NCBI GenBank assembly: GCA_964356325.1
Contig: CAYHHL010000002.1
Span: forward strand, 21,490 to 85,489
Source of the DNA: an uncultured Enterobacteriaceae bacterium
GTDB taxonomy: Bacteria > Myxococcota_A > UBA9042
DNA length: 64,000 bases
Direction: 5' to 3'
Under the pieces are notes generated by a model. That model saw nothing but the letters and a program-made list of their open reading frames with translations. It was not told where the DNA came from and did not search any database. Made by a program: the position numbers and the translations under genes. Numbering within the stretch: the stretch's first letter is position 1; each line of letters starts with the position of its first letter. Below are positions 2,880 to 49,756 of the stretch, piece after piece.

Positions 2880-2903
2880 GGTCCTTCCCGGCTGCGAACG
2901 GCG

Positions 2904-29365: not shown

Positions 29366-29612
29366 GGCAAAAGACGACGGCTAGTAGTGCGTGACGCTCT
29401 GGCTGTGTCAAGCGGCCGGGAAACTTGCGGTGATTGCGTGAATCCGGCTGAGAGTTCGCACGTCTGAACTGGCGGACCGGCAGGAATCCGTTAGGATGGC
29501 CGGTGGAGGCGAGCGCTTCCCCGTTTTCCCGGCAAGCATTTCGAATCCACGGGCATCGATTCCACCTGCAGTCATCGACCGCAACGGACACCAGGGTAGG
29601 GAGGAGATCGGC

Positions 29613-31256
29613 GTGGCGGACGTCATCCAGTTGGACAGCGCGCGCACCGGAATGCCTGGCCCCGAGCCCGCCCCGAAGCCGTACCTGCGCATGAACGTGC
29701 ATGATCGTTCCCGCGTCGAGTGGGTCGCGACCGTGCCCGTGGCGCCCGCAGGTCAGACGCACACCTGGGAAGTCCAGTTCGAGGCCGAGATCGCCGATCA
29801 GATGTGGGTGCCGCATCAACCCTGGGAGCACTTCCAGGTGCGCACGCGGTTGACCAGCCCGGTGCTGGCGCCCGGCCGCCGCATGGGTGGTTTGCCGATC
29901 GACCAGTTGCGCCGGCGAGCGCTGGCCGCGACCCACGAACTGAAGCTGGCCGCGCGCGGGCCGCTGCACGTGCTGGAAACCGCGCTGCGGCGTGATCGGA
30001 TCCTGCGCGAGGAAGAATCTGCCGAAGTGGTGAAGCGACTGCGCGCGGCCCTGGACAAGGCGCAGGCGGCGCGCGATGCCTGCGACTACCTTCGCGATGC
30101 CCGCGACCCGGCGCTGCAGCGTGAGCAACTGCTCGTGGACGAATGGGTTTCCTCGCACGTCATCTTGCTGGTGACCCGACTGACCGCGGCGCTGCAAGGC
30201 ACGGCGACCCGGCGAGCACCGGCGCAACCGCTCCAGGGCCATGTCGCCCTGGTGGAAGCCGCCCTGCACGACGCGCTGGTGGCCGAGCAGGAGCACCGCG
30301 CGGAAATGGGCATCGGTTCGAGCATGGCGCGCACCCGCCACGACGTCGAGCTGTTCATCAACCGCGCCGCGCAACTGAAGAAGCACTTCCAGCAAGCCCT
30401 GTTTCTCGACGCCCGCGCCTACATGCTCGACAGCCGGCTGCGCAACTGGATCGCGATCGTGATGGCGATGATCGCGTCGACGTTCTACTTCGTGTGGCAG
30501 ATCTACGTGCTGAACGCGGCGATGACCGCGGGATCGACGACGGTTTCGCTCATCATGGCGGGACTCATCGCCGCGCTGGTGTATGCCGCCAAGGATCGCA
30601 TCAAGGAGGTAGGGCGCGACTGGGTGGCCCGGCGGCTCAAGCATGGCTACGCGGACCGGGTGGCGCATCTTCACCTGCAAGAGCGCATGGATCCGAACCG
30701 CACCAAGCTGGCCCTGGCGCGCGAGACGATTCACGTGCGCCGGCGCTTCGAACCCGATCGGCTCAATCCGGGCCTGGGCCGCACCACGGTCATGCACCAG
30801 ATCCACGTGCGTGAACTGCTTCGGCATACCGGCCTCAAGCTGCTGCACGATCAGGGCCTGACCGGCATGAAACACGTGTTCCGCTATGACCTTTCGCCGC
30901 TGTTCGACAAGTTGGACGATCACGTCAAGCGCGTGCCGGTGGCGACGGCGACGGGCGTGCGGACCTTGGCGGCGACGCGGGTGTACTCCATTCCGGTCAG
31001 CGTGCGGCTTCGGCAGATAGGTGTCGAGAATCCGGTGGAGATCTGCGAGCGCGGTCTGGTGCTGGTGCGCAGGCGCGGCCTGGAGCGGTTCGTGCGCGGG
31101 CCTGAAGCGCTGGATCTGGTGCGCAGTGGCTTCGGTCAGGCGGACTCGACGCCGTTGCCGGTCGCGGGCGTGGCAGCGATCCCCGCCAAGTCCCTGGCCG
31201 CACGGATTCGCGGTAACAAGGCCGAGCCTTCGCCGGCCGCCAAGACCGCGAGCTAG
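29613..31256 (+). CDS. Hypothetical protein with a central 2-TM hairpin (about 547 aa), partner of the XPB-like helicase
   Basis: GTG start preceded by GGGAGGAG. A helical N-region is followed by NWIAIVMAMIASTFYFVWQIYVLNAAMTAGSTTVSLIMAGLIAALVYAA (two TM helices) and a 230-aa C-domain. Its TAG is directly abutted by the helicase ATG. Confidence 0.5.
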   Translation: MADVIQLDSARTGMPGPEPAPKPYLRMNVHDRSRVEWVATVPVAPAGQTHTWEVQFEAEIADQMWVPHQPWEHFQVRTRLTSPVLAPGRRMGGLPIDQLRRRALAATHELKLAARGPLHVLETALRRDRILREEESAEVVKRLRAALDKAQAARDACDYLRDARDPALQREQLLVDEWVSSHVILLVTRLTAALQGTATRRAPAQPLQGHVALVEAALHDALVAEQEHRAEMGIGSSMARTRHDVELFINRAAQLKKHFQQALFLDARAYMLDSRLRNWIAIVMAMIASTFYFVWQIYVLNAAMTAGSTTVSLIMAGLIAALVYAAKDRIKEVGRDWVARRLKHGYADRVAHLHLQERMDPNRTKLALARETIHVRRRFEPDRLNPGLGRTTVMHQIHVRELLRHTGLKLLHDQGLTGMKHVFRYDLSPLFDKLDDHVKRVPVATATGVRTLAATRVYSIPVSVRLRQIGVENPVEICERGLVLVRRRGLERFVRGPEALDLVRSGFGQADSTPLPVAGVAAIPAKSLAARIRGNKAEPSPAAKTAS

Positions 31257-33311: not shown

Positions 33312-34391
33312 TCATTTGTGTTTCACGGCCAGCTTGCGGAACAGCGCGCGCACGTTGTCGCCCAGCAACCCGCACGTCACCGGTTCAGGCAGCCCCGCCG
33401 CCAGCAAGGCCTCGACCAGGTTGGGCAATTGCCGCACCGAGCGCAGATCGTCGGGCGCCAGGATGTCGCCGTCGAAATCGAGGCCCAGCGCCAGCACCGC
33501 GTCACCACCCACCTGACGAACGTGTTGGACCTGGCGCACGAGGTCGGCGGTCGTGCACCGCGATCTGCCCGCCGCGAAAGGACAATGCGCGTTCAGGCCG
33601 ACGACGCCGCCGGAACGCGCGATGGCAGAGATCAGATCGTCGGGCAGGTTGCGCGCGTGCTGGACGACCGCGCGGGCGTTGGAATGCGTTGCTATCACAG
33701 GCAGTTTGCTCGAGGCCAGCATCTGCCGCGCGGTCGCGTCCGAGGCATGCGAGACGTCCAGGAGCACGCCCATTTCGCCAGCGATGCGCACGAGCTTGCG
33801 GCCTTGCGCCGAGAGTCCGCTGTGCAGCTTTCGACCGCGCGCCGCATCAGCAAAGGCATTGCTTTTGTTCCAGGTGGGCGCCACCGCCAGCAGGCCTTCC
33901 TGGCCCCACCCGCGCAACGCTTCGGCCCGCCCGCCCAGCGCCTCACCGCCTTCGATCGAAACGATGACCAGGGGTTGCTCGCCAGCTGAGGCCGCCAACC
34001 GCTTGGCCTCGGCCCGCACCAGGCCGCATTGCGCCAGCCGGGCGATGGCAACCAGTGCCTCGCGAGCCGCCCGCACGCCGTCTTCGCGCCCGGGCCGGGT
34101 CCAGACCGCATAGACCTGCGCCCCATAACGGGAATCGCGCAGACCAGCGGGATCGGCCTGCAGCGGTTCGCTGCAACGCCACGCTTGCTTGCCGACCGGC
34201 CGCTTGCGCACCTGCCAAGCCGTGTCGGCGTGCAGATCGATCGGCCGACAACGGGCGATCAGTTCCTTCGCCCTTTCACTGGCCTGCACCGGAGCGTGCG
34301 CTGCCGCGAGAGCTAGCGCGACGGCGACGGCTTGCATCGCCGCCCTCGCGACCGGCACACTGCGCCTCCGTTTCGCCACGGCCTTTGCCAC
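33312..34391 (-). CDS. Membrane dipeptidase (peptidase M19, renal dipeptidase family), secreted
   Basis: Metal-ligand motifs IDLHADT, SIEGGEAL, LDVSHAS and VIATHSNARA. The N-terminal signal peptide is KRRR plus a hydrophobic stretch. The start is GTG at 34391 or ATG at 34337. Confidence 0.8.
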   Translation of the reverse strand: MAKAVAKRRRSVPVARAAMQAVAVALALAAAHAPVQASERAKELIARCRPIDLHADTAWQVRKRPVGKQAWRCSEPLQADPAGLRDSRYGAQVYAVWTRPGREDGVRAAREALVAIARLAQCGLVRAEAKRLAASAGEQPLVIVSIEGGEALGGRAEALRGWGQEGLLAVAPTWNKSNAFADAARGRKLHSGLSAQGRKLVRIAGEMGVLLDVSHASDATARQMLASSKLPVIATHSNARAVVQHARNLPDDLISAIARSGGVVGLNAHCPFAAGRSRCTTADLVRQVQHVRQVGGDAVLALGLDFDGDILAPDDLRSVRQLPNLVEALLAAGLPEPVTCGLLGDNVRALFRKLAVKHK

Positions 34392-34433
34392 CTACAGCTC
34401 GCATGCACGCAAGCACGCACGCAGGACACGCGC

Positions 34434-34775
34434 ATGAGAATCGTCGACAAGCCCTGGGGCCACGAGGAGATCTGGGCCGAGACCAGCCGTTATGCCGGCA
34501 AGTTCCTGATCATCCGGCGCGGCGAGATGTTGTCCCGGCAGTACCACGAGCGCAAGGAAGAGACGATTTGCGTGCTGGAGGGCACATTGCTGCTCGAGGT
34601 GGGCCGCGCGCCGGCCGAGCAGCTGCGCCTGGGCCCGGGCGAGGTGTTCCACGTCCTGCCGGGCACCGTGCACCGTTTTTGCGCCGAGGAAAGCGACGTA
34701 CGCCTGGTCGAGGTCTCGACCCCCGAACTCGACGACGTGGTGCGGCTCGAAGACAAGTACGCGCGCAAGGGTTGA
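34434..34775 (+). CDS. Cupin domain protein (mannose-6-phosphate isomerase type II C-domain-like)
   Basis: MRIVDKPWGHEEIWAE...GEMLSRQYHERKEETICVLEG...GEVFHVLPGTVHRF carries cupin motifs 1 and 2. Confidence 0.7.
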   Translation: MRIVDKPWGHEEIWAETSRYAGKFLIIRRGEMLSRQYHERKEETICVLEGTLLLEVGRAPAEQLRLGPGEVFHVLPGTVHRFCAEESDVRLVEVSTPELDDVVRLEDKYARKG

Positions 34776-34937
34776 GAAACGGGGCCAAAGTTTCGAACTC
34801 ACTGGCCAACGGCGCAGGGGCCGCGAGGCGCCATGCACGGCGCACCAGGTTGGACATTACTCCGACAGGCTCCTAGACTCGATCTCCCCATCTGCAAGCG
34901 CGCGGATCTTCGGACGCACGCCGACCACGGAGCCTCG

Positions 34938-37900
34938 ATGCTGCACGCCTCCGGAGCCTTGCTGCCGCCCAGCACGGCTGACGTCCAGAAGCTGATCGCC
35001 CAGTTGCGCGACGATCTGAGCCAGGACGTGCGCACCGAAGTCGCCGATCGCCTGCTGCAACTGGTCGCTGCCGAACCGCATCCTGCCGTCCAGGCCGCCC
35101 TGCTCGAGCGCGCCGCCCGGCTCGTCGTCCCGCACGACCGCGATCGCGCCGTGGGGTTGTTGCGCGAATCTTTCCGGCAGTTCCCGACCCCGTCCGCCGG
35201 ACGCCGCCTGCGGCACCTGGCCGAAGACGATCCGACGATGGCGCGCCTGGGCCGCATGGGTCACCTCGTCGATGCAGTGGCCGAACTGAGCAAGGATCCA
35301 GCGCAACGTGCGACGGCGTGGCTGGACGCGGCGCGCATGCACATTCAGCTCGGCCGCGGCAGGTCCGCCCAGGTCGCTGCGCAGCGTTTGCAGGAATTGC
35401 AGCCGGAGCATCCCGACCTGCCAGAACTATTTGAGATCGCCGAACAACAGCAGGCGGCCCGCGCCGAAATGCTGGCGGCCCAGCGCATGGCGATTGGCGA
35501 GGCGGACGATGCCGAGCGCCCCCTGGCGCTGCTGGCCTACGCCGAACTGCTGCTGACTGGGGAGGAACCGCTTGCCGACGCCGCCGCGGTGCTGGCCGAT
35601 GCGGTCGATACCGGCGTGCCGCTGCACGAAGTGGCGCCGCTGTGGGTGGAAGTGGCCCGGGCGATGGGCGATCGACAGGAAATCGTGCGGTCGCTGACGG
35701 CGGCGCTGCAGGCCGGCGATGCCCTGCCCCAGCGCCTGCAATACGCGGATGAACTGGCTAATATTGCTGGAATCGATCGCACCGAGCCAGCGGTGGCGCT
35801 GCAGGCCCTGACCGCGCTGACCGAAGCCCTGCCGGACGACCTGACGCTGCAGTCCCGGCGCGAGGTAGCCCAGGCGCTGACCGGCGGCGATCAGCGCGAG
35901 ATGCTGTTGGAGGACCTGCGGCAAAAAGCCCTGCAATCGCGCAATCGTGACGGCGAGGCGGTCGTGTGTCTGGCGCTCGCTTGGGTGGCCCAGGAGCAAG
36001 GCGAGGCGGACAAGGCCGAGCGACAGTTCCGGCGCGTGCGGACGTTGGCGCCCCAGAATGCCGAGGCGCTGGACTTCTTCGAGGGCTGGTATCGCGCCCA
36101 GAACGATCACAAGCGCTTGCTGGTCGCGCTGACCCAGCGGCTGGCGATCAGCGAAGGTCGCGAGACCGTGCGTATCGCTACGGAGATCGCGCAGTTGTGC
36201 GAGGGTCCGCTGGCTACGCCCGAACGCGCGGTGGAAGCCTGGCAGCGCGTGCTGGCCGTGCAGCCGGACCATCCGGACGCGGCGACCGCCCTGGAACGCC
36301 TGTACCACCAGCATGGCCGCTGGCATGCACTGCGCGACCTGCTGGATCGGGCGGCGCGGATGCAACTGGCCCGTGCGTCTGTGGATCCGACGGCGCAGGA
36401 GCAAGCGGCGGCCCTGCTGTCCCGGCTGGCGGCGCTGCACGAAAGCGCGGGCAAGCTGCCCGACCCCGAGATGGCGCTGGCAGCGTGGCGACAAGTGCTG
36501 TCGGTGCAACCCCGGCATCCGCAAGCGCTCGCGGCGATCGTGGCCGATGCTCAGGCGCACGGCGAGGCAGGCGCGGCCCTGCACGCCATCGAACAGGCGG
36601 CCAACGCGGCGACCGAACCGGCGGAAGTCGCCGACCTGGCCGAGCGCGCGGCGATGCTGCACACGAGCGCGGGCCGACACGAGGCGGCGGCGGACTGGCT
36701 GCATCGCGCGGTGCAGGCGAGCCCGGACCGTCCGGATCTGGCCGCGCGCGTTGTGGAATCCAGCCGGCAACGGGGCGACGACGCGGCCCTGCTCGACGCG
36801 CTGCTCGGGCAGTTGCGCGCACTATGGCGGACGGCGCCCGAAACGCTGATGCCTGAGCAGGTCGCGGCGGTGCAGGCCCGGGACGAAGCGCAAGATGCGG
36901 TCAGCGTTCTGGAAGAGGCGGCGGCTCTGGCCGAGGCGCTCGATCGGCAAACGCTGGCGGTGCACCTGTACAGCCTGTTGGCGGCCGCGCAACCCGGCCA
37001 CATGGCAGCACTCTTGGGCCTAGGGCGGCTCTGCGTCAAGCCAGATCAGGCGGCGATGTTGGCCAGACTGCTCGAGGCCGAACTGGCGCGCGAGCCATGC
37101 CCTGACGATCGGCGCATCTTCGTGCTCGAACAGCTGGCGACGCTTCAAGTTTCCGCCTTGCGCGACCCGGCCGCGGCAGAGAGGACGGCGGCGCAGTTGG
37201 CGCTTCTGGCACCGGATTCGACCGTGGCGCAGTCGATTCGCGCCCGATCGTTGGTGGAACGCGGCGATCTCGGGGCCTTGCGGGCTCTCTATCCCGACAC
37301 GCCGGCCGGCAATGCGGCGTTCGCGGAGTCTGCCCTGGCGGCGGCCCCGCAGCAGGCTGGTGCGGCGCAAGTCCCCTTGCTGCTTGCGGCGGGCAAGGCG
37401 CTGGCCGGGCAAGAAGGTCAACACGAACGGGCGGCGATGGTGCTGGGCGACGCGCTGCGTGCCGCGCTGGAAGTGGCTAGGCCTGCGCCCGATGCCTTGG
37501 TGGCGGAGACGGCCGAAGCCCTGCTGGACCAGGCGCGGGCCGCGGGTCTGGTGGGCCTGCAACGCGAAGCTCTGGACGCGCTGACCCAGCACACCTCCAG
37601 CGAAATCTCCCTGCGTTGGCAACGGCTGCGGGTAGATCTGTGCGACGACGCAGGGTTGGATGCCGAAGCGGCGGCAGCGGCGGCTGAACTGGCCGAGGAG
37701 TTGCTGGTCGGCGAGCGCTGGGCGGAACTGCCGGAGATGGCCCGTCGTTACGCGTCCTTGAACGCCCGCGCCAGTGAAGCGGGCTCCGAAGCCGCGGCGG
37801 GTTCCGAGGCCGCCGAACGCATCGCCGCGTGGGCTGAAATCGCCGGGGATTCACCCGCTGCCCAGGAAGCGGTCGCGGCGTTGTGGCACGAGTCGGCGCG

Positions 37901-40900
37901 CCTGGCCTTGAACCACGGCGACCTGACCATGGCGCGGCGCGCGGTCGACGGCGCCCTGCACTTGCGCCCCGAAGACGCGACGATCCTGCTGCAGCGCGAG
38001 CGCATCGCCACCGAACAGGAAGACTGGCCAGCCGTGGTCGACAGCTTGGAACGTCTGGCCCGCGTGGCTCCGCCCGAGCAACGAGCCGACCTGCTGTTGC
38101 GCGCGGCCGGACTGAACGATCTCTCGATGGGCGATCCGCTTGTGGCCGAGCGGATGTACCGCGCGGTGCTGGCCGAGCGCCCCGATTCGCTGGAGGGCCA
38201 CGCCGGCCTGCTGGCCGCCCTGCGCCAGCTCGGTGCGGCGCAACCCATGGCGGCAGCGCTGGACGCCTACCTGAAGTTGCCCGCCGTGGGTCGGGAAAGC
38301 CTGGCGCACGCGGCGCTCGAGCGCATGGAACTGGCCGCGGCCGCTGGTGATCCGCAGCCGCTGCGGCCCGTGCTCGCCATCGTGGGCAAGCTGGCCGATC
38401 ACGCCCACCTGGACGAAGACGAAACGACGCTGCTCGCGGTGGCGGTCGCCCAGCTCGACGTGGCCGAAGCAGCTGCTGAAACGGCAACCGCCCTGCTGCC
38501 GGTCCTGCGCAAGCACGGCCGGGACGACGAAGCCTTGCGTTGCCTGGAGTTGCTGGCAGATGCGGCGCCAACGCCCACGGATCGCAGCCACCGGTACATC
38601 GAGGTGGCGGATCTGGTCGAAAGAGAAGCGCCGGAGCGGGCCTACGCGGCGATCCGCGCGGCGCTGGCGAACACGCCCGAAGTGACGGATCTGGCCGAGC
38701 GCGCGGTGCGGTTGGCGGGCAAGACCGGCATGGACGCCGACCTGGATGTGCTGCTGTTGGCGCTGGGTGGCGAGGCGGAGCTGCCGGGCGTGCGGCCCGT
38801 GGAAGATCCGCAAGTTCGGGCCAGGCTGCTGACCTTGCGCGCGCAGCGAGCGTTGCGCGGTGGCGATGCGGCGACGGCGGCAAACCTCTACACTTTGCTG
38901 AACGCGCTTTCGCCGCAAGATCTGGGACCTCTGGAGTCGTTGGAGGCCTTGTACCGCGAGGCTGGCGATCTGGACGCGGTGGCGGTGACCCTGGAGGAGC
39001 GGCTGCAAGCCCGCGTGCCCGGCGACGACCGCATGACCTTGTGGATGCGCTTGGCGAGCCTGCACGGCGACGAGCGCGGCGTCGAGGCGGAGGCCGAGGA
39101 GGTCCTGGCCCGCGCCGTGGCAGAACTGCCGGACAATCAAGACTTGTGGAACGTGTGGCTGGCGACCTTGCGCGACCTGGGCGACCGCAAGAAGCTGGCG
39201 GAAGCGCTGCAGCGACGTCTCGCGCAACCCCGCGCTCAGACGGAGGATGTCGAGGATCGCCAGGCGGCCCGGCTGGAAGTGGCCGACTTGTTGGAACAGG
39301 GCGACGACCACACGTCGGCGCTGCAGCACTGGCTCGAGGCGTTGGAGGTCGATCCGGCGGACGATCACGCGGCCGTGCGAGCTACTGAGACCTGGCTGAG
39401 CCTGGCCGAGCGCGGCTTGCCCGTGGAATTGGAGCAGGCGGCAGAACGGCTGGAAACAGTGCTGGACGCGCGCGGCGATTTCCAGGCGCTGGATCGGGTG
39501 CTGTCAGCCCGGGCGCGCCACCTACAAGACGCGGCGAAGAAGGCGATCCTGTTGCGCCAGGCATTCTTGCGCGAGCGCGGGCTGACCGAGCCAGGTCTGG
39601 CCTTCGAGTCCCTGGGTGCAGCGCTGCGGCTGGATCCGAGCGATCCCGTGGTATTGGCGGACGTACTGAGGTTGGGCGCGGGCGGCACCGAGGCGCATCC
39701 GCCAGCCCTGGCGGTGGGCCGTGTCCTGGCCCAAGCGGCCAACGAACTGAAGGATCCCAGCGCGCGCCGAGCATTGCGTCTGCAGGCGCTGACTTGGCTG
39801 ACGGGCGAGGCCGAAGGCGAAGGCCAGATCCTGCGCCGGGACACCTACGATGCGATGCTCAAGGACAATCCGGGTGATTCCGATGCCCTGGACGGCCTGG
39901 AACGCCTGACGTTGCAGACAGGCGACGATCGGGCGCGGCTGTCGGTCCTGGCGGCGCGGGCCAAGGTGGCGCCGAGGGAGGCTCAACACCGTCTCCTGCT
40001 CGAACACGCCCGCCTGCAAGCGCAACTCGGCGACGAAGTCCCTGCGATCAAGAGCCTGCGCGGCATCCTGGGCAGCGGCGACGCGGAAATGCGCCACGAA
40101 GCGGCGGCCACTTTGTGCGAGTTGCACGAGCGCCGCGGCGAACAGCGGGAACTGGCCGATGCCTTGATGGTCCTGTGCGGAACCATGGATGATCCGGACG
40201 CCCGGCGCCAGTTGACCCTGCGCGCGGCCCTGGTGCTGGCCCACTACGGCGACGGCGAGCGGGCGCGGACGATGCTGCTCGGCGAACGCATCGAGCATCC
40301 ACGCGATCGCGAAATCCAGGCCACCCTGGAGGACCTCCTGCGTTCGAGCGGCGATCAGGCGGCGCTGGCCGATCACCTGAAGCACGGCTGGACACAGGTC
40401 TTCACCGGCGAAGGCGATGCGGTTGCGCGCCTGCAGGTGGCACTGCAGTGGCTGGACGTACGGCAACACCTGGTCGGTCTGGCGGCGATCTGGCCGGACG
40501 TGCAGGCGGTGCTGGACGCCGGTTTGCGCGGGCCCGAGCTCGATGCGGTGCTGGAATCGCTCGAGGGTTGCAAGGATGCTGAGGTCTCGCTGGCGGCGAC
40601 CCGGCGTCACATCGCGCTGCACCGGGAAGCGGGCGACGCGGCGGGCGAAGTGGCGGTGCGCCTGGATCTGTTGGATCGCTGGCCGGAATCGGCGGATGCG
40701 CGCACTGAACGGGGCGTCGTCGCACACCTGCTGGAGGTCGACCTGGGCGACCCCGAGTCGGCGCTCTCGCAGTGGCAGGTCCTGTTGGCGACCGCGCCAT
40801 GGCACGAACACGTAGTGGCAGAGGCCCAGCGGTTGGCCGACGGTCTCTTGCGCGGCGCCGAGATCGACGAGGAAGTGCGCGCGGCGATGCTGAGACTGCC

Positions 40901-43900
40901 GACGGCGGCGGAGCGCAATGCCGTGCGAATGCATCTGGTCGAGCGAGCTTATGGCCGCGACGAGATGGGGCGGATGGCGGACGTGCTGGACGAGGTGCTG
41001 CGCGACGAGCCGGGCCACCCCGAAGCTTTCTCCATGCGTGGCGCGGTCTTGACGGAACTGCCGGAGTGGCACCACACAGATCGGCTGGCGGCGCACTGGC
41101 GTCACGGCATCGAGCACGCCGCGAGCGCGGTCGAGAAGCGCACGGCCAGGCTGGAACTGGCTAGATTGCTTCACGATCACCTGGGCGGAAGCGGAGTGGC
41201 CTTTGACCTGGTGCGCGACGAACTGGCTGAGCATCCGGACGCAGCCGACGCGGCAGAACTCATTGCGCTGGCACGGACGTACGGCGACGCGGCGGGTCGC
41301 GGCCGGGACGTCCTGGCGCTGCTGCGGGCCGAAGCCGAACGGGCGCCGTCGGGTCAGGCGCGGGCCGACCAGTTGCTGGCGCTGGCAGAGCGCTGTCTGG
41401 ATCAGAGCGGGGACGCTGAATCTGCACGGCTTTTTGCTGAACAAGCTTGGCAGGAAGCAGGGCCGAGCGCCCGGGCGTTCGCGGTGCTGGACAAGGCCGT
41501 GGATCGCTTGGAGACCCCCCCGCCGGAACTGCTCGTGCAACTGGCCGAACACCACGGGCAGAAGGAACCGGCGAAGGCGGCGCGACTCTTGCTGCGGGCC
41601 CAGCACCAGGCTTCGGACCCGGCTCTACTGAGGACGATTCTCCGTCAGCTGGCCACGGTGGCGCCGGCTGCGCGGCAAGCGGGGGTGGACCTGGACGCCC
41701 TGGGTCTGGCGCGCGACCTTGCCTTGGCCGAGCCGGAAGTACCCGAGAACTGGCAGGTGCTCGACAAGGCGGCGCAGGATCGGTCCGAGACGTTGATCGT
41801 GGCGCTGCTGCAAGCGGCCCAGGCGACAGAGGATCTGGCGTTGCGTCACGAGTTGCTCACGCGGGCGGCGCGCAAATGCGAAGCTACCGGCGATACGCAA
41901 CGCGGGCTGGCGGTCTACAAGCAGCTGGCGACGTTGCGCCCGGATGACGCGGCGCTGGCCGACCTGTACCTGACTGCCCTGCACGCGGCGGGCGACCCGT
42001 ACTACGGCGAGGCGCTGGCCAATGCCGTCGATCTGGCACGCAAGGCGGGCGAAACCCAGCGTCTGGCCAGGCTTCTGGAGCCCCACCTGCGGCTGGCGAC
42101 CACGGCCAAGCAACGCCACGGCATCCTGGGTGAATTGCGCACCCTGGGCGTACAAACCGAGGAAATGCGCGCGACGCTGGCCGCGCTCGCGGAAGATACC
42201 CAAGGTCTCGATGAGTTGGCGACGCGGGAAGTCAATGCGTGGCGCTTGCTCGACCTGGACCCAGAGCGCGAGCCGGAGGCCTGGCTGGCGGCTCGGTTGC
42301 AGGCGCTGGACACCATCGAAGACGCGGCGGTGCGGCAGGCGACCTGGCTCGACGTCGCCCGACACGCGCGCCAGCGGATGCAAGAGCAGGCGCAAGCTTT
42401 GGAATGGACGCTGCAGGCGCTCGATCCCGCTCCGGCGCCGGACACCTTGGCGGAACTGCCGGATCTGGTGCAGGACGAAGACGGCGCGCGCACGGTACTG
42501 GCCGCGCTGGAGCTTAGGCTTGGCGAAGAACGTTCGGATCACGGGCAGTTGGCGACGCTCGGTTTCGAGATCGGTCGACAGTTCCTCGGTCTGGACGCGG
42601 CCGTGGCGGCGTTCGCCCAGGCCTTGGCGGCCGACCGGCTCGATGCCGTGCAGTGGCTGGAGGACGCGGCGCGGTTGCAGGGCGACCTGACCGAAGCCCA
42701 GCGCCTGCTGCGGCTCGTGGCGCAACGGTTGGAAGCGACCGATCCGGCGGCGGCGGTTCAGGCCTGGCTGCGACTGGCCGACGAGACGGTGGGCACCGCG
42801 CAAGGGCAAGAAGCGCTGCAGCGAGTGCTGGCGCTCGAGCCCAAGCACGTTGGAGCGCTGCGACAAAGCCTGCAGGCGGCGGTCGCCGCGAACGATGCCG
42901 CGCGCCTCGTTCAACTGGCGGAAGACTTGGGTGAAAACGCGACGACTCAAGAGCGTGTCGCGATGGCGAAGGGCCTGCGCTCGCTCGGTCGCGAACAGGC
43001 GGCCCAGGCTGCGCTGACGGCGGCCCTGGCGCAGACCCCCGATGACGAGTCGGCCCTGCGGTTGCGCGCCGAACTGCAGGGCGCGACGCTGCACCTCCTG
43101 CCCGCTGCCGAACGGGGCGTGGCGACTCGGGCGTTGGCGGGCACCCTGGCGGCACTGGGCCAGGCGGATGAGGCGATCGATCTGCTGCTGAAGTGGGCGC
43201 GCCAGGCCTCTGACCCTCTGGAAGCCATTGAACAGGCGGGAGATATTGCGCGTGCGGCGGGTCGCTTGGACCTGTGGGTCGACGGCGTGTCCGATCTCGT
43301 GAGCAACGAAGATCTGCCGGTCGAGGCGGTCGCGCCGGCGGTGGCGCTGGCGGCGGCGGCGCTGGCCGAAAGTGGCGATCCCGGACGCGCGGCGGACTTG
43401 TGGCAGGCGGCGTGGGACCAGGATTCGGACAACCAGGACGCGTTGGAAATGGTGCTGGCCTTGCGGCGCGAGGCGGGCGATCTGCCCAGGCTGGCGCGTG
43501 ATCTCGAGCGGGCCCTGATGCTGGGCGGCGGCGAGGCGCAGACGCTGCGTCTGGAACTGGCTGAATTGAAGCGCACCGTGCTGGGCCGACCGCGCGAAGC
43601 GCTGCGTTTGGTGCTCGAAGTGTTGGCAGCGGATCCGCATGCGGCCGATGCCCTGACCCTGGCCGGCCAGTTGATGCGCACGCCAGCGGTGGCGGACGAG
43701 GCGCTGGCTGAACTGGAGCCCCTGTTTCGTGGTGCGCGCCAATGGCAAGGCGTGGCGACGGTGCTGCAAGCGCGCTTGGATCGGACCCAATTGCCGGCGG
43801 AACGGGCGATCTTGGCTGCGGAACTGGCGCGGGTGCAGTCCGAGCACATCGGCGACCACACGCAATCGGTGCGGTCCCTGGCGGTCGCGGTCCAGGCCCG

Positions 43901-45896
43901 ACCGTCGCTGCCGACGCTGACGGCCCTGCTCGCGGTGGCCAAGCCCGAGGACGCGGCAGTGGCAGCCGAGGCCCTGCAGCGCGTGCTGGCGGCGAGCCTT
44001 CCTCCAGCGCAACTGGCGGAAGTTTTGCGCAAAGCGGCGGCCTTCGAGGACGGGCGCGGCGAAGAAGCGATGGCCGAACGGCACCTGCGCGACCTGGTCG
44101 ACCTGATGCCCGACGACGCGGAGGCCTTCGAGCAACTCGAAAGTCGCCTGGACGCGAGCGGGCGCTGGGACGACGTGATTGCCCTGTGGCGGCGCCGACT
44201 TGACCAGACGCGCGACGTGGATGCCCGGCGCGTCGGTCTGCATCGACTGGCCGGGATCGCGCGTGCGGTGGGCCGCCAGGACGTGGCGATGCAGGCGCTG
44301 CAGGACCAGGCCAAGCTCGATCCGACTGACCCGGATCCGCACGTTGCGATGGTGGAAATCCTGCGCGACTTGGACCAGCCGGCGCAACTGGCGGACGCCC
44401 TGGTTGGCCTCGGTCGGGTGTTGAGCAAGCCCCATGATCGCGCCGAGGCGTTGTGCGAGGCGGCGCGCTTGTACCAGCGTGTGCTGAAGTCCGCTGAAAA
44501 GACGGCGGATGCCTATGACGAGGCGTTCCGGGCCGATCCGACGCACGACGAGGCCTTCGTGTTCCTGGAGCGCCAGGCCGGCCACGAATCGCGCAGGCTC
44601 GAGCCGCTGTACGCACAGCGTGCGGCGGCGCTGCCTCCCGGTCCGACGCGGACCCTCATGTTGCGCCGGCTTTCCCAGGCCTGTGCCGATCGCGGCGACG
44701 GCGAAGGGGCTTGCCTGGCGCTCGAACGGGCGCTGGACGACGATCAGGCCAACACGGTGGTACTGGACGATCTGCTGCGGCTGAGCGAACACCACCGCGT
44801 GTGGCCGAGCTTCGTCAAGGCGGCCGAACTCAAACTGGCGGACGCGGCGGGGGCAGTGCGGCGCGAAACCCAGGTCTCGCTGCACGGCCATCTGGCGCGC
44901 ATCGCCATGACCGAACTGCCTGATGCGCCAGCAGCCCTGCGCCACGTCGCGGCCCTGCAACTGTTGGCGCCCGGCGAGGCGGTGACGCGGCACCTGCAGG
45001 CGCTGGCCCAGGCGCACAGCGGCGATCCGCAGGAGGCGGCGACGGGTCTGGAGAAGATGATCCGCGAGGCCGAGGACGTGCCGACGCAGATTTCCCTGCA
45101 CCAACAGCTGGCCGACCTGTACGCAGGCCCGTTGCAGAACCCGGCCAAGGCTGTTCGCGAGTATCAGAAGCTACTTTCGCTCGATGGGCGGCGTTGGCCG
45201 GCGCGCCGCAAGCTGTGCGATCTGTATGCCGCGCGGCAATCGCCCGAGGCACAGGCGGAATGCTTGCGCCAGTGGATCGGCGCACTGGCCGAAGGCGACG
45301 GTCGCGGCACGATGAGGATGCAGCTGGGCGGTGAACTCGTCGGTTTGTATGCGGAACTGGGCGAGGTGCTGCTGGTGCTGGGCCAGACTGCCGAAGCCAT
45401 GCAAAACCTGCGTCAGGCCCATGCGCTGGGCGGGGACGAGTTGCGCATCGACACGGCGTTGATGCCGCTTCTGGAGCAGTCAGGCGACTTTGCCGGCGCA
45501 TTGAAGCTGGAGGAGTGGCTGCTGACGCACGTCGACGAAGGTCTGGCGGAGCGGCAGATGCACGCAGGCCTTCTGGCGGAACAGGCGCACGAGCCGGGCA
45601 AGGCCCGCGATCACTTCCGCAAGGCGCTTGACCTGATCCCGGACGACGACGATGCGACGCTCGGTTGCGGGCGGGCGCACCTGGCGCTGGGCGAGACCGA
45701 CCGGGCGATGCGCCTGTTCGACGCGGTGGGCAGACGGGCGAGCGCGACCGTGGCGAGGCGGGCGCAGGCTTTGGTCGGCCTCGGGCGTTGCCGGGCGATG
45801 CGGGCGCAACCGGCGCAGGCGCGGGCGTGTTACGACGAGGCGTTGGCACTGGTGCCGGGTCTTCCGGACGCGCTGGCGGCTAAAGCGGAACTGTAA
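34938..45896 (+). CDS. Giant all-alpha TPR-like repeat protein (3,652 aa), no recognisable catalytic domain
   Basis: A single uninterrupted 10,959-nt frame. Codon usage matches its neighbours. Composition is dominated by A/L/R/E/D/Q with recurring ...ALxLDPxxxxAL..LxxLY... TPR/HAT-like units throughout. ATG with GGAG RBS. No signal peptide. Confidence 0.8.
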   Translation: MLHASGALLPPSTADVQKLIAQLRDDLSQDVRTEVADRLLQLVAAEPHPAVQAALLERAARLVVPHDRDRAVGLLRESFRQFPTPSAGRRLRHLAEDDPTMARLGRMGHLVDAVAELSKDPAQRATAWLDAARMHIQLGRGRSAQVAAQRLQELQPEHPDLPELFEIAEQQQAARAEMLAAQRMAIGEADDAERPLALLAYAELLLTGEEPLADAAAVLADAVDTGVPLHEVAPLWVEVARAMGDRQEIVRSLTAALQAGDALPQRLQYADELANIAGIDRTEPAVALQALTALTEALPDDLTLQSRREVAQALTGGDQREMLLEDLRQKALQSRNRDGEAVVCLALAWVAQEQGEADKAERQFRRVRTLAPQNAEALDFFEGWYRAQNDHKRLLVALTQRLAISEGRETVRIATEIAQLCEGPLATPERAVEAWQRVLAVQPDHPDAATALERLYHQHGRWHALRDLLDRAARMQLARASVDPTAQEQAAALLSRLAALHESAGKLPDPEMALAAWRQVLSVQPRHPQALAAIVADAQAHGEAGAALHAIEQAANAATEPAEVADLAERAAMLHTSAGRHEAAADWLHRAVQASPDRPDLAARVVESSRQRGDDAALLDALLGQLRALWRTAPETLMPEQVAAVQARDEAQDAVSVLEEAAALAEALDRQTLAVHLYSLLAAAQPGHMAALLGLGRLCVKPDQAAMLARLLEAELAREPCPDDRRIFVLEQLATLQVSALRDPAAAERTAAQLALLAPDSTVAQSIRARSLVERGDLGALRALYPDTPAGNAAFAESALAAAPQQAGAAQVPLLLAAGKALAGQEGQHERAAMVLGDALRAALEVARPAPDALVAETAEALLDQARAAGLVGLQREALDALTQHTSSEISLRWQRLRVDLCDDAGLDAEAAAAAAELAEELLVGERWAELPEMARRYASLNARASEAGSEAAAGSEAAERIAAWAEIAGDSPAAQEAVAALWHESARLALNHGDLTMARRAVDGALHLRPEDATILLQRERIATEQEDWPAVVDSLERLARVAPPEQRADLLLRAAGLNDLSMGDPLVAERMYRAVLAERPDSLEGHAGLLAALRQLGAAQPMAAALDAYLKLPAVGRESLAHAALERMELAAAAGDPQPLRPVLAIVGKLADHAHLDEDETTLLAVAVAQLDVAEAAAETATALLPVLRKHGRDDEALRCLELLADAAPTPTDRSHRYIEVADLVEREAPERAYAAIRAALANTPEVTDLAERAVRLAGKTGMDADLDVLLLALGGEAELPGVRPVEDPQVRARLLTLRAQRALRGGDAATAANLYTLLNALSPQDLGPLESLEALYREAGDLDAVAVTLEERLQARVPGDDRMTLWMRLASLHGDERGVEAEAEEVLARAVAELPDNQDLWNVWLATLRDLGDRKKLAEALQRRLAQPRAQTEDVEDRQAARLEVADLLEQGDDHTSALQHWLEALEVDPADDHAAVRATETWLSLAERGLPVELEQAAERLETVLDARGDFQALDRVLSARARHLQDAAKKAILLRQAFLRERGLTEPGLAFESLGAALRLDPSDPVVLADVLRLGAGGTEAHPPALAVGRVLAQAANELKDPSARRALRLQALTWLTGEAEGEGQILRRDTYDAMLKDNPGDSDALDGLERLTLQTGDDRARLSVLAARAKVAPREAQHRLLLEHARLQAQLGDEVPAIKSLRGILGSGDAEMRHEAAATLCELHERRGEQRELADALMVLCGTMDDPDARRQLTLRAALVLAHYGDGERARTMLLGERIEHPRDREIQATLEDLLRSSGDQAALADHLKHGWTQVFTGEGDAVARLQVALQWLDVRQHLVGLAAIWPDVQAVLDAGLRGPELDAVLESLEGCKDAEVSLAATRRHIALHREAGDAAGEVAVRLDLLDRWPESADARTERGVVAHLLEVDLGDPESALSQWQVLLATAPWHEHVVAEAQRLADGLLRGAEIDEEVRAAMLRLPTAAERNAVRMHLVERAYGRDEMGRMADVLDEVLRDEPGHPEAFSMRGAVLTELPEWHHTDRLAAHWRHGIEHAASAVEKRTARLELARLLHDHLGGSGVAFDLVRDELAEHPDAADAAELIALARTYGDAAGRGRDVLALLRAEAERAPSGQARADQLLALAERCLDQSGDAESARLFAEQAWQEAGPSARAFAVLDKAVDRLETPPPELLVQLAEHHGQKEPAKAARLLLRAQHQASDPALLRTILRQLATVAPAARQAGVDLDALGLARDLALAEPEVPENWQVLDKAAQDRSETLIVALLQAAQATEDLALRHELLTRAARKCEATGDTQRGLAVYKQLATLRPDDAALADLYLTALHAAGDPYYGEALANAVDLARKAGETQRLARLLEPHLRLATTAKQRHGILGELRTLGVQTEEMRATLAALAEDTQGLDELATREVNAWRLLDLDPEREPEAWLAARLQALDTIEDAAVRQATWLDVARHARQRMQEQAQALEWTLQALDPAPAPDTLAELPDLVQDEDGARTVLAALELRLGEERSDHGQLATLGFEIGRQFLGLDAAVAAFAQALAADRLDAVQWLEDAARLQGDLTEAQRLLRLVAQRLEATDPAAAVQAWLRLADETVGTAQGQEALQRVLALEPKHVGALRQSLQAAVAANDAARLVQLAEDLGENATTQERVAMAKGLRSLGREQAAQAALTAALAQTPDDESALRLRAELQGATLHLLPAAERGVATRALAGTLAALGQADEAIDLLLKWARQASDPLEAIEQAGDIARAAGRLDLWVDGVSDLVSNEDLPVEAVAPAVALAAAALAESGDPGRAADLWQAAWDQDSDNQDALEMVLALRREAGDLPRLARDLERALMLGGGEAQTLRLELAELKRTVLGRPREALRLVLEVLAADPHAADALTLAGQLMRTPAVADEALAELEPLFRGARQWQGVATVLQARLDRTQLPAERAILAAELARVQSEHIGDHTQSVRSLAVAVQARPSLPTLTALLAVAKPEDAAVAAEALQRVLAASLPPAQLAEVLRKAAAFEDGRGEEAMAERHLRDLVDLMPDDAEAFEQLESRLDASGRWDDVIALWRRRLDQTRDVDARRVGLHRLAGIARAVGRQDVAMQALQDQAKLDPTDPDPHVAMVEILRDLDQPAQLADALVGLGRVLSKPHDRAEALCEAARLYQRVLKSAEKTADAYDEAFRADPTHDEAFVFLERQAGHESRRLEPLYAQRAAALPPGPTRTLMLRRLSQACADRGDGEGACLALERALDDDQANTVVLDDLLRLSEHHRVWPSFVKAAELKLADAAGAVRRETQVSLHGHLARIAMTELPDAPAALRHVAALQLLAPGEAVTRHLQALAQAHSGDPQEAATGLEKMIREAEDVPTQISLHQQLADLYAGPLQNPAKAVREYQKLLSLDGRRWPARRKLCDLYAARQSPEAQAECLRQWIGALAEGDGRGTMRMQLGGELVGLYAELGEVLLVLGQTAEAMQNLRQAHALGGDELRIDTALMPLLEQSGDFAGALKLEEWLLTHVDEGLAERQMHAGLLAEQAHEPGKARDHFRKALDLIPDDDDATLGCGRAHLALGETDRAMRLFDAVGRRASATVARRAQALVGLGRCRAMRAQPAQARACYDEALALVPGLPDALAAKAEL

Positions 45897-45914
45897 GGTA
45901 ATCAGGAGATTCAC

Positions 45915-46982
45915 ATGAAGACGGAACTGCCCCGGCCCACGCGAGTGGCCGTGGTTGGCGCGACGGGCTACGGCGGTGCCGAACTGCTGCGCCATTTGCT
46001 CGGGCATCCTCACATTCGGGTGACGCGTCTGGTGGCCAAGGACAATCTAGGCAAGCGCCTGGATCAAGTGCACTTGTCGCTGGCGGGACTGACCGACTTG
46101 CGCATCGAGGACCTGACGCCCGAACAGGTGGTGCAAGACGCCGATCTGGTCTGCGTCGGTCTGCCGCATCGGGTCAGCGCGGCGATCGTGGCGAGATACG
46201 TGGACTTGGGTGTGGCGGTCATGGACTTGTCGGGCGACTACCGGCTGCTCGACGTCGCGCAGTACGAGCACTACTACGAGGCGAAACACCCGGAAGCGCA
46301 CCGGCTTGGCACCTTCGTATACGGCATGCCGGAATTGCACCGCGAAAAGATCCGCACGGCTCGGCACGTCGCCAGTCCCGGCTGCTTTGCCACTGCGATT
46401 ACGCTGGCTTTGCTGCCCCTGGCCAAGGCGGGCGTGTTGCAAGGTCGCGTGCGGGTGGCGGCGCTGACCGGCTCCTCGGGCTCGGGCGCGAATCCGGCGC
46501 TGGGCACGCACCATCCGTTGCGCGCGCAGACGCTGCGGCCGTACAAGCCCTTGACGCACCAGCACGTTCCCGAAATCGAGATGAACCTCGGGCAGAACGG
46601 CGCGCGCGACCTGACCTTGGACCTGGTGCCGATTTCGGCGCCGCTCGTGCGCGGGATCCTGACCACTTGCTTTGCGGAAATCGACGCTTCGGTGCCGGTC
46701 GAGCGGCTGCAGCAGGCCCTGCACGAATGCTATGCGACCGAGAAGCTGCTGCGTGTCCTGGACGATAGGCTGCCCGAAGTGAATGCGGTGGCGGGCACGA
46801 TGTTCGTGGAACTGGCGATGACCATAGGCGATCTGACTCCTGATGGCCGGCGGACCGTGGTGATGCACAGCGCGCTGGACAACCTGGTGAAGGGCGGCGC
46901 CGGCCAGGCCATGCAGTCGATCAACCTGATGTTGGGCGTGGACGAGCACTTGGGGCTGCTGGCGCCGAAGGCCTGGCCTTGA
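45915..46982 (+). CDS. argC: N-acetyl-gamma-glutamyl-phosphate reductase
   Basis: VAVVGATGYGGAELLRHL is the NAD(P) fold. Active-site ASPGCFATA carries the catalytic Cys. RBS AGGAGA. The gene starts 18 nt after the giant gene's stop. Confidence 0.95.
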   Translation: MKTELPRPTRVAVVGATGYGGAELLRHLLGHPHIRVTRLVAKDNLGKRLDQVHLSLAGLTDLRIEDLTPEQVVQDADLVCVGLPHRVSAAIVARYVDLGVAVMDLSGDYRLLDVAQYEHYYEAKHPEAHRLGTFVYGMPELHREKIRTARHVASPGCFATAITLALLPLAKAGVLQGRVRVAALTGSSGSGANPALGTHHPLRAQTLRPYKPLTHQHVPEIEMNLGQNGARDLTLDLVPISAPLVRGILTTCFAEIDASVPVERLQQALHECYATEKLLRVLDDRLPEVNAVAGTMFVELAMTIGDLTPDGRRTVVMHSALDNLVKGGAGQAMQSINLMLGVDEHLGLLAPKAWP

Positions 46983-47800
46983 TGCGCCGGGTCCTGGTCA
47001 AGGTGGGCGGCGAAACGCTGTTGGATCCGCAAGATCGCGCGCGGCTAGCGGCGGATCTCGCCGGGGTCCGGGCCCAGGGCGTGCAGCTGTGCGTGGTCCA
47101 CGGCGCGGGTCCGCAAATCACTGCGCTCGGTGCAAAGCTGGGCATACACTCGACCTTTCGCGGCGGCCGGCGCGTGACCGACGCGGCGATGCTCGAGGCC
47201 GTGGCGATGGCGATGGCCGGGCAAGTCGGGCCCCTGCTGCTGGCCTCGTGTCTGGCGGCGGGGCTGCCAGCGGTGTCGACTCCAGCAGCTTCAGCGGGTT
47301 GCGTGGTGGGCCAGAAGCGCCCGCCGCGACCGGTGCCGGGCGAAGCGGAGCCGGTGGACTTCGGCCTGGTCGCGGACGTGGCTCGCGTCGACCCGACGTT
47401 GCTCGAGGCGCTGTGGCACGCGGACCTGGTGCCGCTGCTGTCCTCGCTGGTCGCCGATCCTCAAGGTCAACTGCTGAACCTGAATGCGGATACCATGGTG
47501 ACGGCGCTGACCGAGGCCGTACGTTTCGACGACGTGGTGTTGCTGACCGGAGTGCCGGGCGTGTTTCGCAATCTCGCCGATCCGAGCAGTCACTTGCCTG
47601 AACTGGCGGCGCGTGACCTGAAACCGCTGCTCGCGTCCGGCGCCATCCAGGGCGGCATGATCGCCAAACTGGAGGAGGTCGGCGCCATCCTGGAGCGCGG
47701 GGCAAAGGCCGTGTGGATCGTGGGTTACAAGGACGCGGGCGCGGTGACCTCGGCGCTTTCGGGGCGGGCTGGAACGCGCACGGTGGTGCGGGCCGATTGA
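46979..47800 (+). CDS. argB: Acetylglutamate kinase
   Basis: KVGGE, VVHGAGPQI and LNLNADT are amino-acid-kinase family signatures. The start overlaps the argC stop. Confidence 0.95.
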   Translation: MMRRVLVKVGGETLLDPQDRARLAADLAGVRAQGVQLCVVHGAGPQITALGAKLGIHSTFRGGRRVTDAAMLEAVAMAMAGQVGPLLLASCLAAGLPAVSTPAASAGCVVGQKRPPRPVPGEAEPVDFGLVADVARVDPTLLEALWHADLVPLLSSLVADPQGQLLNLNADTMVTALTEAVRFDDVVLLTGVPGVFRNLADPSSHLPELAARDLKPLLASGAIQGGMIAKLEEVGAILERGAKAVWIVGYKDAGAVTSALSGRAGTRTVVRAD

Positions 47801-47874
47801 ACGGCGGTGAAATGCCCCGGCGTCATTGCGCAGGCGCGCGCTTTCGTAGCAAGCTGGGCATCACCGGAGGAACC

Positions 47875-48552
47875 TTGGGCCATTTCGTCTGCAGCACCGC
47901 CCGCGAGGCATTCGATCGGCGCGCCAGTGCCGTGTCGGGGCTCGGCTGCGTTTGCCTGGTCGCCGTGCTCGCCTGCATGGTGCCGAGAGCCGCCGACGCC
48001 ATGAACGTCGACGGCAAGCTCGGCGTCGGCTTCGAGGAGACCCTGACCGGCATCGGCGTGCGCCAGGCCCAAAGCGTGGACGATCACGCGAGCGGCGGCA
48101 CGCCCTTGCCCGACATGAGCGCATCTGGACTCGCTTTCCGGTACTATACCGGCAACTTGGGATTCGAGGTCATTCTAGGCGCGGCCCTGCACCATCCCAC
48201 CGGCCACGACTTCGAGTACTCGCTGCTCATCTCGCCCGCCGTGTTCTACAACGTCTTTCGCGCCCCGACCGTCAACCTTTCGCTCGGCGCCCGCTTCCTC
48301 AACGGCTGGTCGCAGTTCAACGACGCGCAGGGCAACGCCGCCAATGGAAGATACGGCTTCGCTGTGGAAATTCCCTTGCGCGCCGAGTACTTCTTCGCCG
48401 GTGCGTTTGCCATCAGCGGCGCCGTCGGTCCGGTCATCATCCACAACGGCGCGCGTGGCAACCCGTTGACCGGCAACGCCAACTCGACGGACGTCTCCCT
48501 GACCCGCGGTGGCTTTTCGGGCGGCGTCGGCTTCACCTACTACATCAACTGA
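47875..48552 (+). CDS. Small outer-membrane beta-barrel protein (about 225 aa)
   Basis: TTG start after GGAGG. Signal peptide ...RRASAVSGLGCVCLVAVLACMVPRAADA. Alternating aromatic/Gly-rich strands; ends ...GVGFTYYIN. The track ORF 47713.. is N-extended, and the start codon is uncertain. Confidence 0.45.
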   Translation: MGHFVCSTAREAFDRRASAVSGLGCVCLVAVLACMVPRAADAMNVDGKLGVGFEETLTGIGVRQAQSVDDHASGGTPLPDMSASGLAFRYYTGNLGFEVILGAALHHPTGHDFEYSLLISPAVFYNVFRAPTVNLSLGARFLNGWSQFNDAQGNAANGRYGFAVEIPLRAEYFFAGAFAISGAVGPVIIHNGARGNPLTGNANSTDVSLTRGGFSGGVGFTYYIN

Positions 48553-49637: not shown

Positions 49638-49756
49638 ACTCTGATGGTCGCTTGCGGACGACGCCGGCCGCGCTTGACAGGCTCGCCAGCGCGGACTAGC
49701 AGCACGTGCCTTCGCGTCCTATGCTGGACGTGTGCGCGCCACTGCCTCGGAGACCC

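Follow-up and report, generated by a model that had tools for sequence, protein, structure and literature searches.

A 3,652-residue TPR-like protein encoded upstream of argC-argB in a Myxococcota genome: a probable modular cytoplasmic scaffold

Among non-enzymatic bacterial proteins, giant tetratricopeptide repeat (TPR) solenoids rank with the largest, and to our knowledge GltI of the gliding machinery is the sole member of this kind with any functional assignment. What, then, is the 3,652-residue TPR-like protein that is encoded directly upstream of argC and argB in a 64,000-nucleotide stretch of DNA (hereafter the window; GenBank assembly GCA_964356325.1, contig CAYHHL010000002.1, positions 21,490 to 85,489 of the forward strand), deposited as an uncultured Enterobacteriaceae bacterium and placed by GTDB in Myxococcota_A? 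A preliminary description, made from the nucleotide sequence, had proposed a single long open reading frame (ORF) encoding a rare type of helical scaffold, probably co-transcribed with the arginine genes, and had called for checks against an assembly artefact and for a search for embedded enzymatic or binding domains. We found that the giant gene is real and under purifying selection, and that its product is an all-α solenoid with conserved ends and a variable middle. We consider it probable that the giant protein is a modular, cytoplasmic, non-enzymatic scaffold, with conserved ends joined by a length-variable TPR rod, and that it represents a branch of a family of ~3,750-residue giants. The gene and its start signals are as follows (window coordinates).

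34938..45896, + strand: gene for the giant TPR-like protein, 3,652 codons and a TAA stop; frame stop-free, full-length in 11 loci from metagenome-assembled genomes (MAGs), ratio of nonsynonymous to synonymous substitution rates (dN/dS) 0.09–0.16
34929..34932, + strand: ribosome-binding site GGAG, separated from ATG 34938 by 5 nt, from sequence reading
34851..34879, + strand: candidate promoter of sigma-70 type (TGGACA-17-TAGACT), located in the 162 nt between the cupin gene and the giant gene, a consensus match only

The giant gene is real and under purifying selection

When one genome per species was scanned with a C-terminal alignment as the query, 13 related loci were found, all on Myxococcota-type MAG contigs from freshwater metagenomes. 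The ORF is complete in 11 of the 13 (3,015–3,864 codons from stop to stop). These 11 full-length orthologues, which come from independent assemblies, comprise 3,009–3,856 residues, share 37–46% identity with the giant protein, and are collinear with it over ~3,000–3,600 residues. The dN/dS values of close pairs (Nei–Gojobori) were 0.09–0.16 overall and below 0.22 in every segment, the variable middle included. The sense frame contained no stop codon in the window gene or in nine orthologues, versus 4–127 stops in the other five frames. The stop-free frame, the collinear orthologues, and the purifying selection establish the single 3,652-codon ORF as a real gene.

The possibility of an assembly chimera, or of a spurious long ORF in GC-rich DNA, is suggested by the base composition. 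The GC content is 70%, and the GC1/GC2/GC3 values of the antisense frame equal those of the sense frame (0.81/0.48/0.81), so that GC3 cannot discriminate between the strands; the antisense frame is open for up to 1,181 codons (34938–45896, minus strand). Nevertheless, the long antisense ORFs vanish in two orthologous loci, L004 and L005, where 64–65 stops occur, and their earlier dismissal as GC-frame artefacts was correct. The DNA repeats found within the giant gene do not exceed 42 nt and are only 64–84% identical; repeat collapse or concatenation is therefore no concern. Together with the full-length orthologues from independent assemblies, which refute the concern about a repeat-collapse chimera, the dN/dS of ~0.1, the distribution of stops, and the confident structure models described below, these results leave an artefactual ORF with practically no probability.

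Two side observations concern these loci. A GC3-based gene caller could choose the wrong strand at the giant gene. Additionally, the labels of L005 (CAMDBH010000014.1, 'Klebsiella pneumoniae') and L006 (CAYURO010000034.1, 'Enterobacteriaceae bacterium') look wrong, because the syntenic block of Myxococcota type found at the other loci is present on both contigs as well.

The stop-free frame on the + strand extends over 34833..45896, and ATG 34938 is the best choice of start. It is preferred to the alternative ATG 34833 because GGAG precedes it, because the sigma-70-like site lies 3' of the alternative, and because the N-terminus of its product, 'MLHASGALLPPS.ADVQKLIAQLRDD', aligns with the orthologues from the first residues, with the common N-terminal pattern 'M-L/Q-H/Q-S-x-G...'. 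The single sigma-70-like site, versus 0.0 expected from shuffled sequences, is not evidence of function. The encoded protein is rich in A (20%), L (15.6%), R (9.4%), E (8.4%), and D (7.6%). At the 3' end, the stop codon TAA (45894–45896) is followed by AGGAG at 45904–45908 and by the argC ATG at 45915. The 18-nt distance given previously is correct as the gap to the argC start codon, not to the ribosome-binding site from which it had been stated. Between the end of the cupin gene at 34775 and the giant gene start lie 162 nt, close to the 160 nt first reported.

Fold and modular conservation of the giant protein

Pfam and NCBIfam scans, which had been suggested for finding an embedded enzymatic domain, gave TPR-type matches only. 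The significant ones fell mostly at residues 3327–3641, with profile scores of 44.1 bits for TPR_1 (cutoff 27.8), 38.4 for TPR_2 (27), 34.2 for TPR_11 (26.8), and 30.8 for TPR_19 (25). A weak Pfam match to ARM_TT21_5th (TTC21-type) was located at residues 509–588, and a sequence search of the PDB retrieved only designed consensus TPRs. AlphaFold2 (AF2) models were computed for residues 1–760, from an alignment of nine sequences, and for residues 2753–3652, from four sequences. The former showed a predicted local distance difference test (pLDDT) score of 88.8 with 42 helices, and the latter a score of 83.6 with 50 helices; neither contained a strand, and both consist solely of helices of ~13–17 residues separated by short turns, 92 in total. 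The Pro/Gly periodicity, which reports the helix period, was 17.6–18.7 residues in every 700-residue segment, including the unmodelled middle. For this middle 55% of the protein, it is the 18-residue periodicity alone that speaks for a hairpin build. The TPR/HAT-type helix hairpins proposed at the outset were recovered as helix wherever the protein was modelled, and with their periodicity throughout. The giant protein carries both marks of the TPR-like α-solenoid superfamily, namely TPR profiles above their thresholds and tandem helix hairpins.

No transmembrane (TM) segment was found in the giant protein (maximum Kyte–Doolittle 19-residue score of 1.58), its N-terminus is not signal-peptide-like, HExxH, CxxC, and GxSxG motifs are missing, and no enzymatic domain was detected by Pfam, NCBIfam, or the motif scan. 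A Walker-A-like string, AVRLAGKT at residue 1256, was rejected as a P-loop, since it is conserved in no orthologue. The earlier statement that a P-loop, catalytic motif, signal peptide, and TM segment are all absent holds, with the addition of this one non-conserved string. The fold is an all-α solenoid without catalytic or membrane features, and a scaffold role, as first suggested, can reasonably be inferred.

Foldseek searches of the PDB with both models retrieved the long TPR/HAT scaffolds CTR9, Ski3/TTC37, TTC21B/IFT139, TTC7B, Prp6, and OGT. The best structural matches were Ski3/TTC37, CTR9, TTC21B/IFT139, TTC7B, and Prp6, with a probability of 1.00 and E values from 1e-14 to 1e-7. Eukaryotic long TPR/HAT scaffolds of this kind (Ski3, CTR9, TTC21B, TTC7B, and Prp6) are non-enzymatic platforms that hold multi-protein complexes. 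They are three- to fivefold shorter than the giant protein and 10–17% identical to it, and their global template modelling scores against the AF2 models are 0.15–0.28; the likeness is one of repeat fold only.

Comparison with the orthologues divides the protein into five segments.

34938..35927, + strand: N-terminal module, residues 1–330; clade-specific helical hairpins, 47–63% identity to orthologues
35928..36377, + strand: most conserved segment, residues 331–480; landmark 'AERQFRRVR...ALDFFEGWY...HKRLL' and prototype repeat unit, 58–60% identity to orthologues
36378..40937, + strand: central TPR-like rod, residues 481–2000; moderately conserved, 24–43% identity to orthologues, 481–760 modelled as hairpins
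40938..43187, + strand: length-hypervariable part of the rod, residues 2001–2750; indels of 45–349 residues, dN/dS 0.09–0.22
43188..45893, + strand: conserved C-terminal module, residues 2751–3652; 39–57% identity to orthologues, canonical TPRs at ~3327–3641, Foldseek matches to Ski3, CTR9, TTC21B, and TTC7B

Identity to the orthologues peaks at residues 1–500 (47–63%) and 2800–3652 (39–57%). The N-terminal module, modelled as all helix at a pLDDT of ~90, appears specific to the clade, as a profile of residues 1–330 matched 22 targets, 20 of which are giants of at least 2,000 residues (the orthologues). Most of the large indels behind the 3,009–3,856-residue range fall in residues 2000–2750, and L004 shows further deletions from ~residue 1580; the indels as a whole are restricted to ~residues 1600–2750. 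In a block-versus-block profile comparison, the blocks related by repeats were 351–700, 981–1120, 1261–1470, and 2800–3220; almost no internal similarity was found for 1–350, and none for 771–980 or most of 2031–2590.

A natural variant shows the same division. P0001 (995 residues, L001:5216-8203) consists of an N-terminal module of ~380 residues and a C-terminal module of ~550, with a Pro-rich linker between them. Its gene occupies the same place, directly upstream of argC-argB, and the whole central rod is naturally deleted. The C-terminal module is also retained in P0036 and P0037. The pattern of modular conservation is clear: the conserved ends, the variable middle, and the rod-less variant suggest that function resides in the ends, with a spacer or platform between them whose length can be reduced and which can even be absent.

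The wider family and the comparison with GltI

An exhaustive profile search with residues 1–520 against 1.84 billion representative proteins (50%-identity clusters) gave 1,610 matches, of which 251 clusters lay below E=1e-30, mostly with lengths of 3,200–4,200 residues. All named members are annotated as 'tetratricopeptide repeat protein' and come from Myxococcota or related MAGs. Proteins of this size and build had first been called rare. In Myxococcota they are common, as the 251 clusters demonstrate, and GltI/AgmK has already been characterised; the distribution there, flagged early as worth checking, comprises orthologues in 11 MAGs and these wider clusters.

Among the matches listed, 147 proteins have at least 2,000 residues. 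Twenty match the clade-specific residues 1–330 and are the orthologues; 56 (median 3,750 residues, interquartile range (IQR) 3,723–3,822) carry the landmark at 60 bits or more within the first 20% of their length; the remaining 71 show weaker or off-register matches. The landmark, 'AE..F.R[IV]R ... F[FY]E..Y....D[WYH]..L', starts at residue 360 of the giant protein, within the ~300–450 range expected for the ~3,750-residue family. By strict regular expression, its median position is 364 in 81–87 of 160 giants, and its profile scores 70–117 bits at ~residues 310–400 of the ~3,750-residue giants (relative position 0.08–0.10). Furthermore, the best BLAST segments against ~3,800-residue giants are collinear at ~25% identity (query 71–820 to subject 101–823, 1173–2083 to 1158–2068, and 2770–3632 to 2948–3818), with segments from the N-terminus, middle, and C-terminus seen for P0135, P0124, P0111, P0172, and P0139. 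The family members (such as P0124, P0099, P0135, P0139, and P0172) resemble the giant protein in landmark position, fold type, and size; they differ from it in that they are only ~25% identical, do not match residues 1–330, and have other neighbours, with a PF13699 gene upstream in three cases, whereas a cupin gene and argC flank the giant gene. The giant protein probably forms a divergent branch, specific to its clade, within a large Myxococcota family of ~3,750-residue giants that is still uncharacterised.

In three cases a PF13699 (eCIS_core/DUF4157) gene, encoding 218–265 residues, is found immediately or almost immediately upstream of the gene for a distant ~3,800-residue giant, in the same orientation. 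The protein may be a conserved partner in the ~3,750-residue family. This tentative family feature, seen in three of six contexts, is absent at the giant gene, where the cupin gene is upstream in the window and the orthologues.

L022:8326-9123, L023:8941-9597, L024:142-798, and L025:9177-9836, same strand as the giant TPR gene: PF13699 genes, upstream; L023 and L024 are one case

GltI (AgmK, MXAN_4863) has 3,822 residues in M. xanthus and 4,074–4,104 in Anaeromyxobacter and Stigmatella, and is a cytoplasmic giant TPR protein of the Agl-Glt gliding machinery that is recruited to focal adhesions (PMC11761067, PMC3169522). It has been modelled as a ~1,100 Å rod with six GltG-FHA binding sites and proposed to be a scaffold that organises gliding-motility complexes (PMC11761067). 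The giant protein and GltI share the phylum, the size class, an all-TPR helical build with a similar repeat unit, a cytoplasmic location, the lack of an enzymatic domain, and a proposed scaffold role. GltI, however, is encoded in or beside the G1 glt cluster (gltD-E-F-G-H-I-J), and the giant gene is not.

To compare the two at the sequence level, we used a GltI orthologue that was identified by synteny. In L026:641-22345, genes resembling gltD, gltE, gltF, and gltG(FHA) by size, domains, and order are followed by a 310-residue TPR gene and then by P0169 (4,114 residues), which is therefore taken as the GltI orthologue. The clade's segment profiles matched P0169 weakly and off-register; the landmark reached 42 bits at residue 2468, and the C-terminal profiles were scattered. 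In the GltI-type ~4,100-residue giants generally, the landmark scored 38–57 bits off-register, versus 70–117 bits in the ~3,750-residue family. The ~3,750-residue family appears distinct from GltI by these profile comparisons. With size, cytoplasmic location, and phylum in common, and with neither a glt-cluster location nor collinear homology (the latter judged against P0169 alone), the giant protein is not classified as a GltI member. A true member would, in addition, bind the GltG FHA and GltJ GYF domains, go to focal adhesions, and be required for gliding; no glt partners were identified for the present organism. In build the giant protein resembles GltI, and its mode of working is probably similar.

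Two further groups of proteins touch on this comparison. A ~1,690-residue Myxococcota family (P0009 and P0013), named 'Adventurous gliding motility protein K' in some annotations, shares a ~70–80-residue repeat unit with residues 330–750. We rejected it as a true relative, since it has no landmark, half the length, no collinearity with the giant protein, and housekeeping neighbours in Myxococcus; the 'AgmK' name on it was carried over by annotation and does not stem from a functional test. Separately, NCBI accessions close in number were noted among the giants (MBU0553488/MBU0550480 and MBU1429516/MBU1433306; P0171/P0193, 3,823 aa; P0211/P0092, 4,623 and 4,227 aa). Such closeness hints at the presence of two distinct giant TPR proteins in single Myxococcota MAGs, which would then be paralogous.

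Neighbouring genes, competing explanations, and proposed role

The genes flanking the giant gene include the following.

34332..34775, + strand: cupin gene, 147 residues; Cupin_2 E=9.9e-10, syntenic in the clade
45915..46982, + strand: argC; TIGR01850 346.8 bits versus a cutoff of 233.6, starts 18 nt after the giant gene stop
46979..47800, + strand: argB-like amino-acid kinase gene; overlaps the argC stop, AA_kinase 1e-37, TIGR00761 147.6 bits versus a cutoff of 151.3
49706–51772, + strand: swapped-fusion aconitase-family gene, 688 residues; the LeuD-like small-subunit domain comes first (N-terminal), then the LeuC-like large-subunit domain

The argC gene clears its cutoff and is genuine; argB scores close to its own. 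The order of cupin, giant TPR gene, argC, argB, ~220-residue ORF, leuB-like gene, fused aconitase-family gene, TPR gene, deaminase-like gene, and argG is conserved, as scored across the 13 loci wherever the contig is long enough. Except in L001, the cupin gene precedes the giant gene at all loci of sufficient length. Other neighbours in the window include a helicase and an M19 peptidase gene, and the leuB-like gene ends at 49637. A LysW/aminoadipate lysine cluster, which would also combine argC/argB-like, Iso_dh, and aconitase genes, was rejected: argC passes an arginine-specific model, the best match of argB is argB, and argG is downstream.

Several neighbours deserve mention in their own right. 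The swapped-fusion aconitase-family protein is 76–80% identical across the related MAGs and adjoins the isopropylmalate-dehydrogenase-like (leuB-like) gene. The ~220-residue ORF (~47800–48552, + strand) between argB and the leuB-like gene recurs at the same place in nine related loci, and no family match was found for it beyond a weak hint of an outer membrane protein β-barrel (E=0.08). A second TPR protein of 471 residues (51803–53218, + strand) is encoded between the aconitase-family and guanine-deaminase-like genes. A 586-residue protein without a family match (29496–31256, + strand) is conserved beside the cupin gene in L012 and L015 and also occurs in L001; a 586-residue gene beside P0139 (L022) was considered as its counterpart and rejected as unrelated.

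The position of the gene invites an explanation in terms of arginine biosynthesis, in which the giant gene would share a transcript with argC-argB and its product would act on the pathway enzymes as a scaffold or regulator. The genes share a strand, the 18-nt gap holds a ribosome-binding site, and no terminator-like site was found between the giant gene and argC, so that read-through transcription is plausible. The TPR-argC-argB adjacency occurs in all 13 MAG loci and on two metagenome contigs (L001 and the P0036 contig), with argG in the same block. However, this block of ~10 genes is functionally mixed, holding cupin, leuB-like, aconitase-family, guanine-deaminase-like, and further TPR genes; the gap between the TPR gene and argC varies from 13 to ~160 nt among the orthologues; and the giants beyond the clade precede unrelated genes, among them those for 5-enolpyruvylshikimate-3-phosphate synthase, an ion channel, and a pyrroloquinoline quinone (PQQ)/metallophosphatase protein. 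An arginine-related domain is also absent from the giant protein in the Pfam and NCBIfam scans, and neither linkage beyond the clade nor any pathway-tied domain was found. The mixed block and the unrelated neighbours beyond the clade lead us to read the linkage as inherited synteny. Of the earlier propositions, co-transcription with the arginine genes remains plausible, and the case for a functional tie is weak; adjacency to argCB extends throughout the clade and not to relatives beyond it. A coupling to arginine biosynthesis is very unlikely, and we regard the link as inherited gene order in one narrow clade.

Two other explanations draw on the relatives of the giant protein. If it were the clade's GltI/AgmK orthologue, an Agl-Glt focal-adhesion scaffold that has moved away from the glt cluster, the agreement in phylum, size class (GltI 3,822–4,104 residues), all-TPR build, and predicted cytoplasmic location would be expected; GltI-type giants match the profile at E ~1e-45 to 1e-69 in ~20 stretches each, and the N-terminus retrieved proteins publicly annotated 'AgmK'. 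Yet no glt or agl gene was found in the 64-kb window or the 13 related loci, the match to P0169 is weak and off-register (42 bits at 2468 versus 70–117 bits at ~310–400), and the accession neighbours suggest that 3,823-residue and 4,227–4,623-residue giants coexist in single MAGs, and hence belong to paralogous families. We therefore judge orthology to GltI to be quite improbable. A cytoskeleton-like or ruler element of an unrecognised system, shared with the ~3,750-residue family and paired in several lineages with a DUF4157/eCIS_core protein, would account for the PF13699 gene upstream of three distant members and for the tight family length (median 3,750 residues, IQR 3,723–3,822), as expected if length matters. 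The clade itself does not conform, as its lengths are loose (995 and 3,009–3,856 residues) and a cupin gene, not PF13699, is upstream of the giant gene and its orthologues; PF13699 occurs, moreover, in only three of the six contexts examined. This explanation seems unlikely.

A modular scaffold that branches from the ~3,750-residue family is the reading that we favour, and several points weigh against it. The AF2 models span 45% of the protein. Residues 1–330 are without detectable relatives beyond the clade. The link to the ~3,750-residue family consists of ~25% identity in repeat-rich sequence, and the C-terminal anchors stand at the expected position in only 14–55% of the 56 family members. 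The comparison with GltI was made with one orthologue, P0169, defined by synteny. Furthermore, the length given for the rod is an extrapolation that draws on helix counts and on the GltI model in the literature (PMC11761067).

The architecture that we infer, comprising a scaffold role, a long rod, and docking by the ends, may be outlined as follows. Extrapolation from the helix period found throughout the protein and from the AF2 helix counts gives ~200 helices, and these ~100 TPR-like hairpins would stack into an extended, rod-like superhelix with a length on the order of 100 nm. The conserved N-terminal end (residues 1–500, with the landmark segment at 331–480) and the C-terminal end (~2750–3652) would dock specific partner proteins. 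Between them, the TPR rod would serve as a spacer and a multivalent platform that gathers many copies of the partners into one large assembly, and its length would differ between species. Such a working mode may be compared with that of GltI as the proposed organiser of gliding-motility complexes.

More tentatively, the ~3,750-residue family may constitute a second Myxococcota family of ~100-nm cytoplasmic TPR rods, independent of GltI and represented by hundreds of clusters. These proteins would belong to an unrecognised organising system, with docking ends and a rod tuned in each lineage, and the present clade would be a divergent offshoot distinguished by an N-terminal head of its own, its gene expressed on one transcript with argC-argB. 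We consider this broader proposal possible and hold it with clear reserve.

For genome annotation, the linkage to the arg genes is an inherited order in one clade, not a clue to function. The interest that remains lies in a very large family of giant TPR proteins that has no characterised member and is apparently distinct from GltI, and in the clear modular architecture of the giant protein. The conserved ends, the variable rod, and the natural rod-less variant provide a tangible basis for designing experiments that ask what these rods organise.

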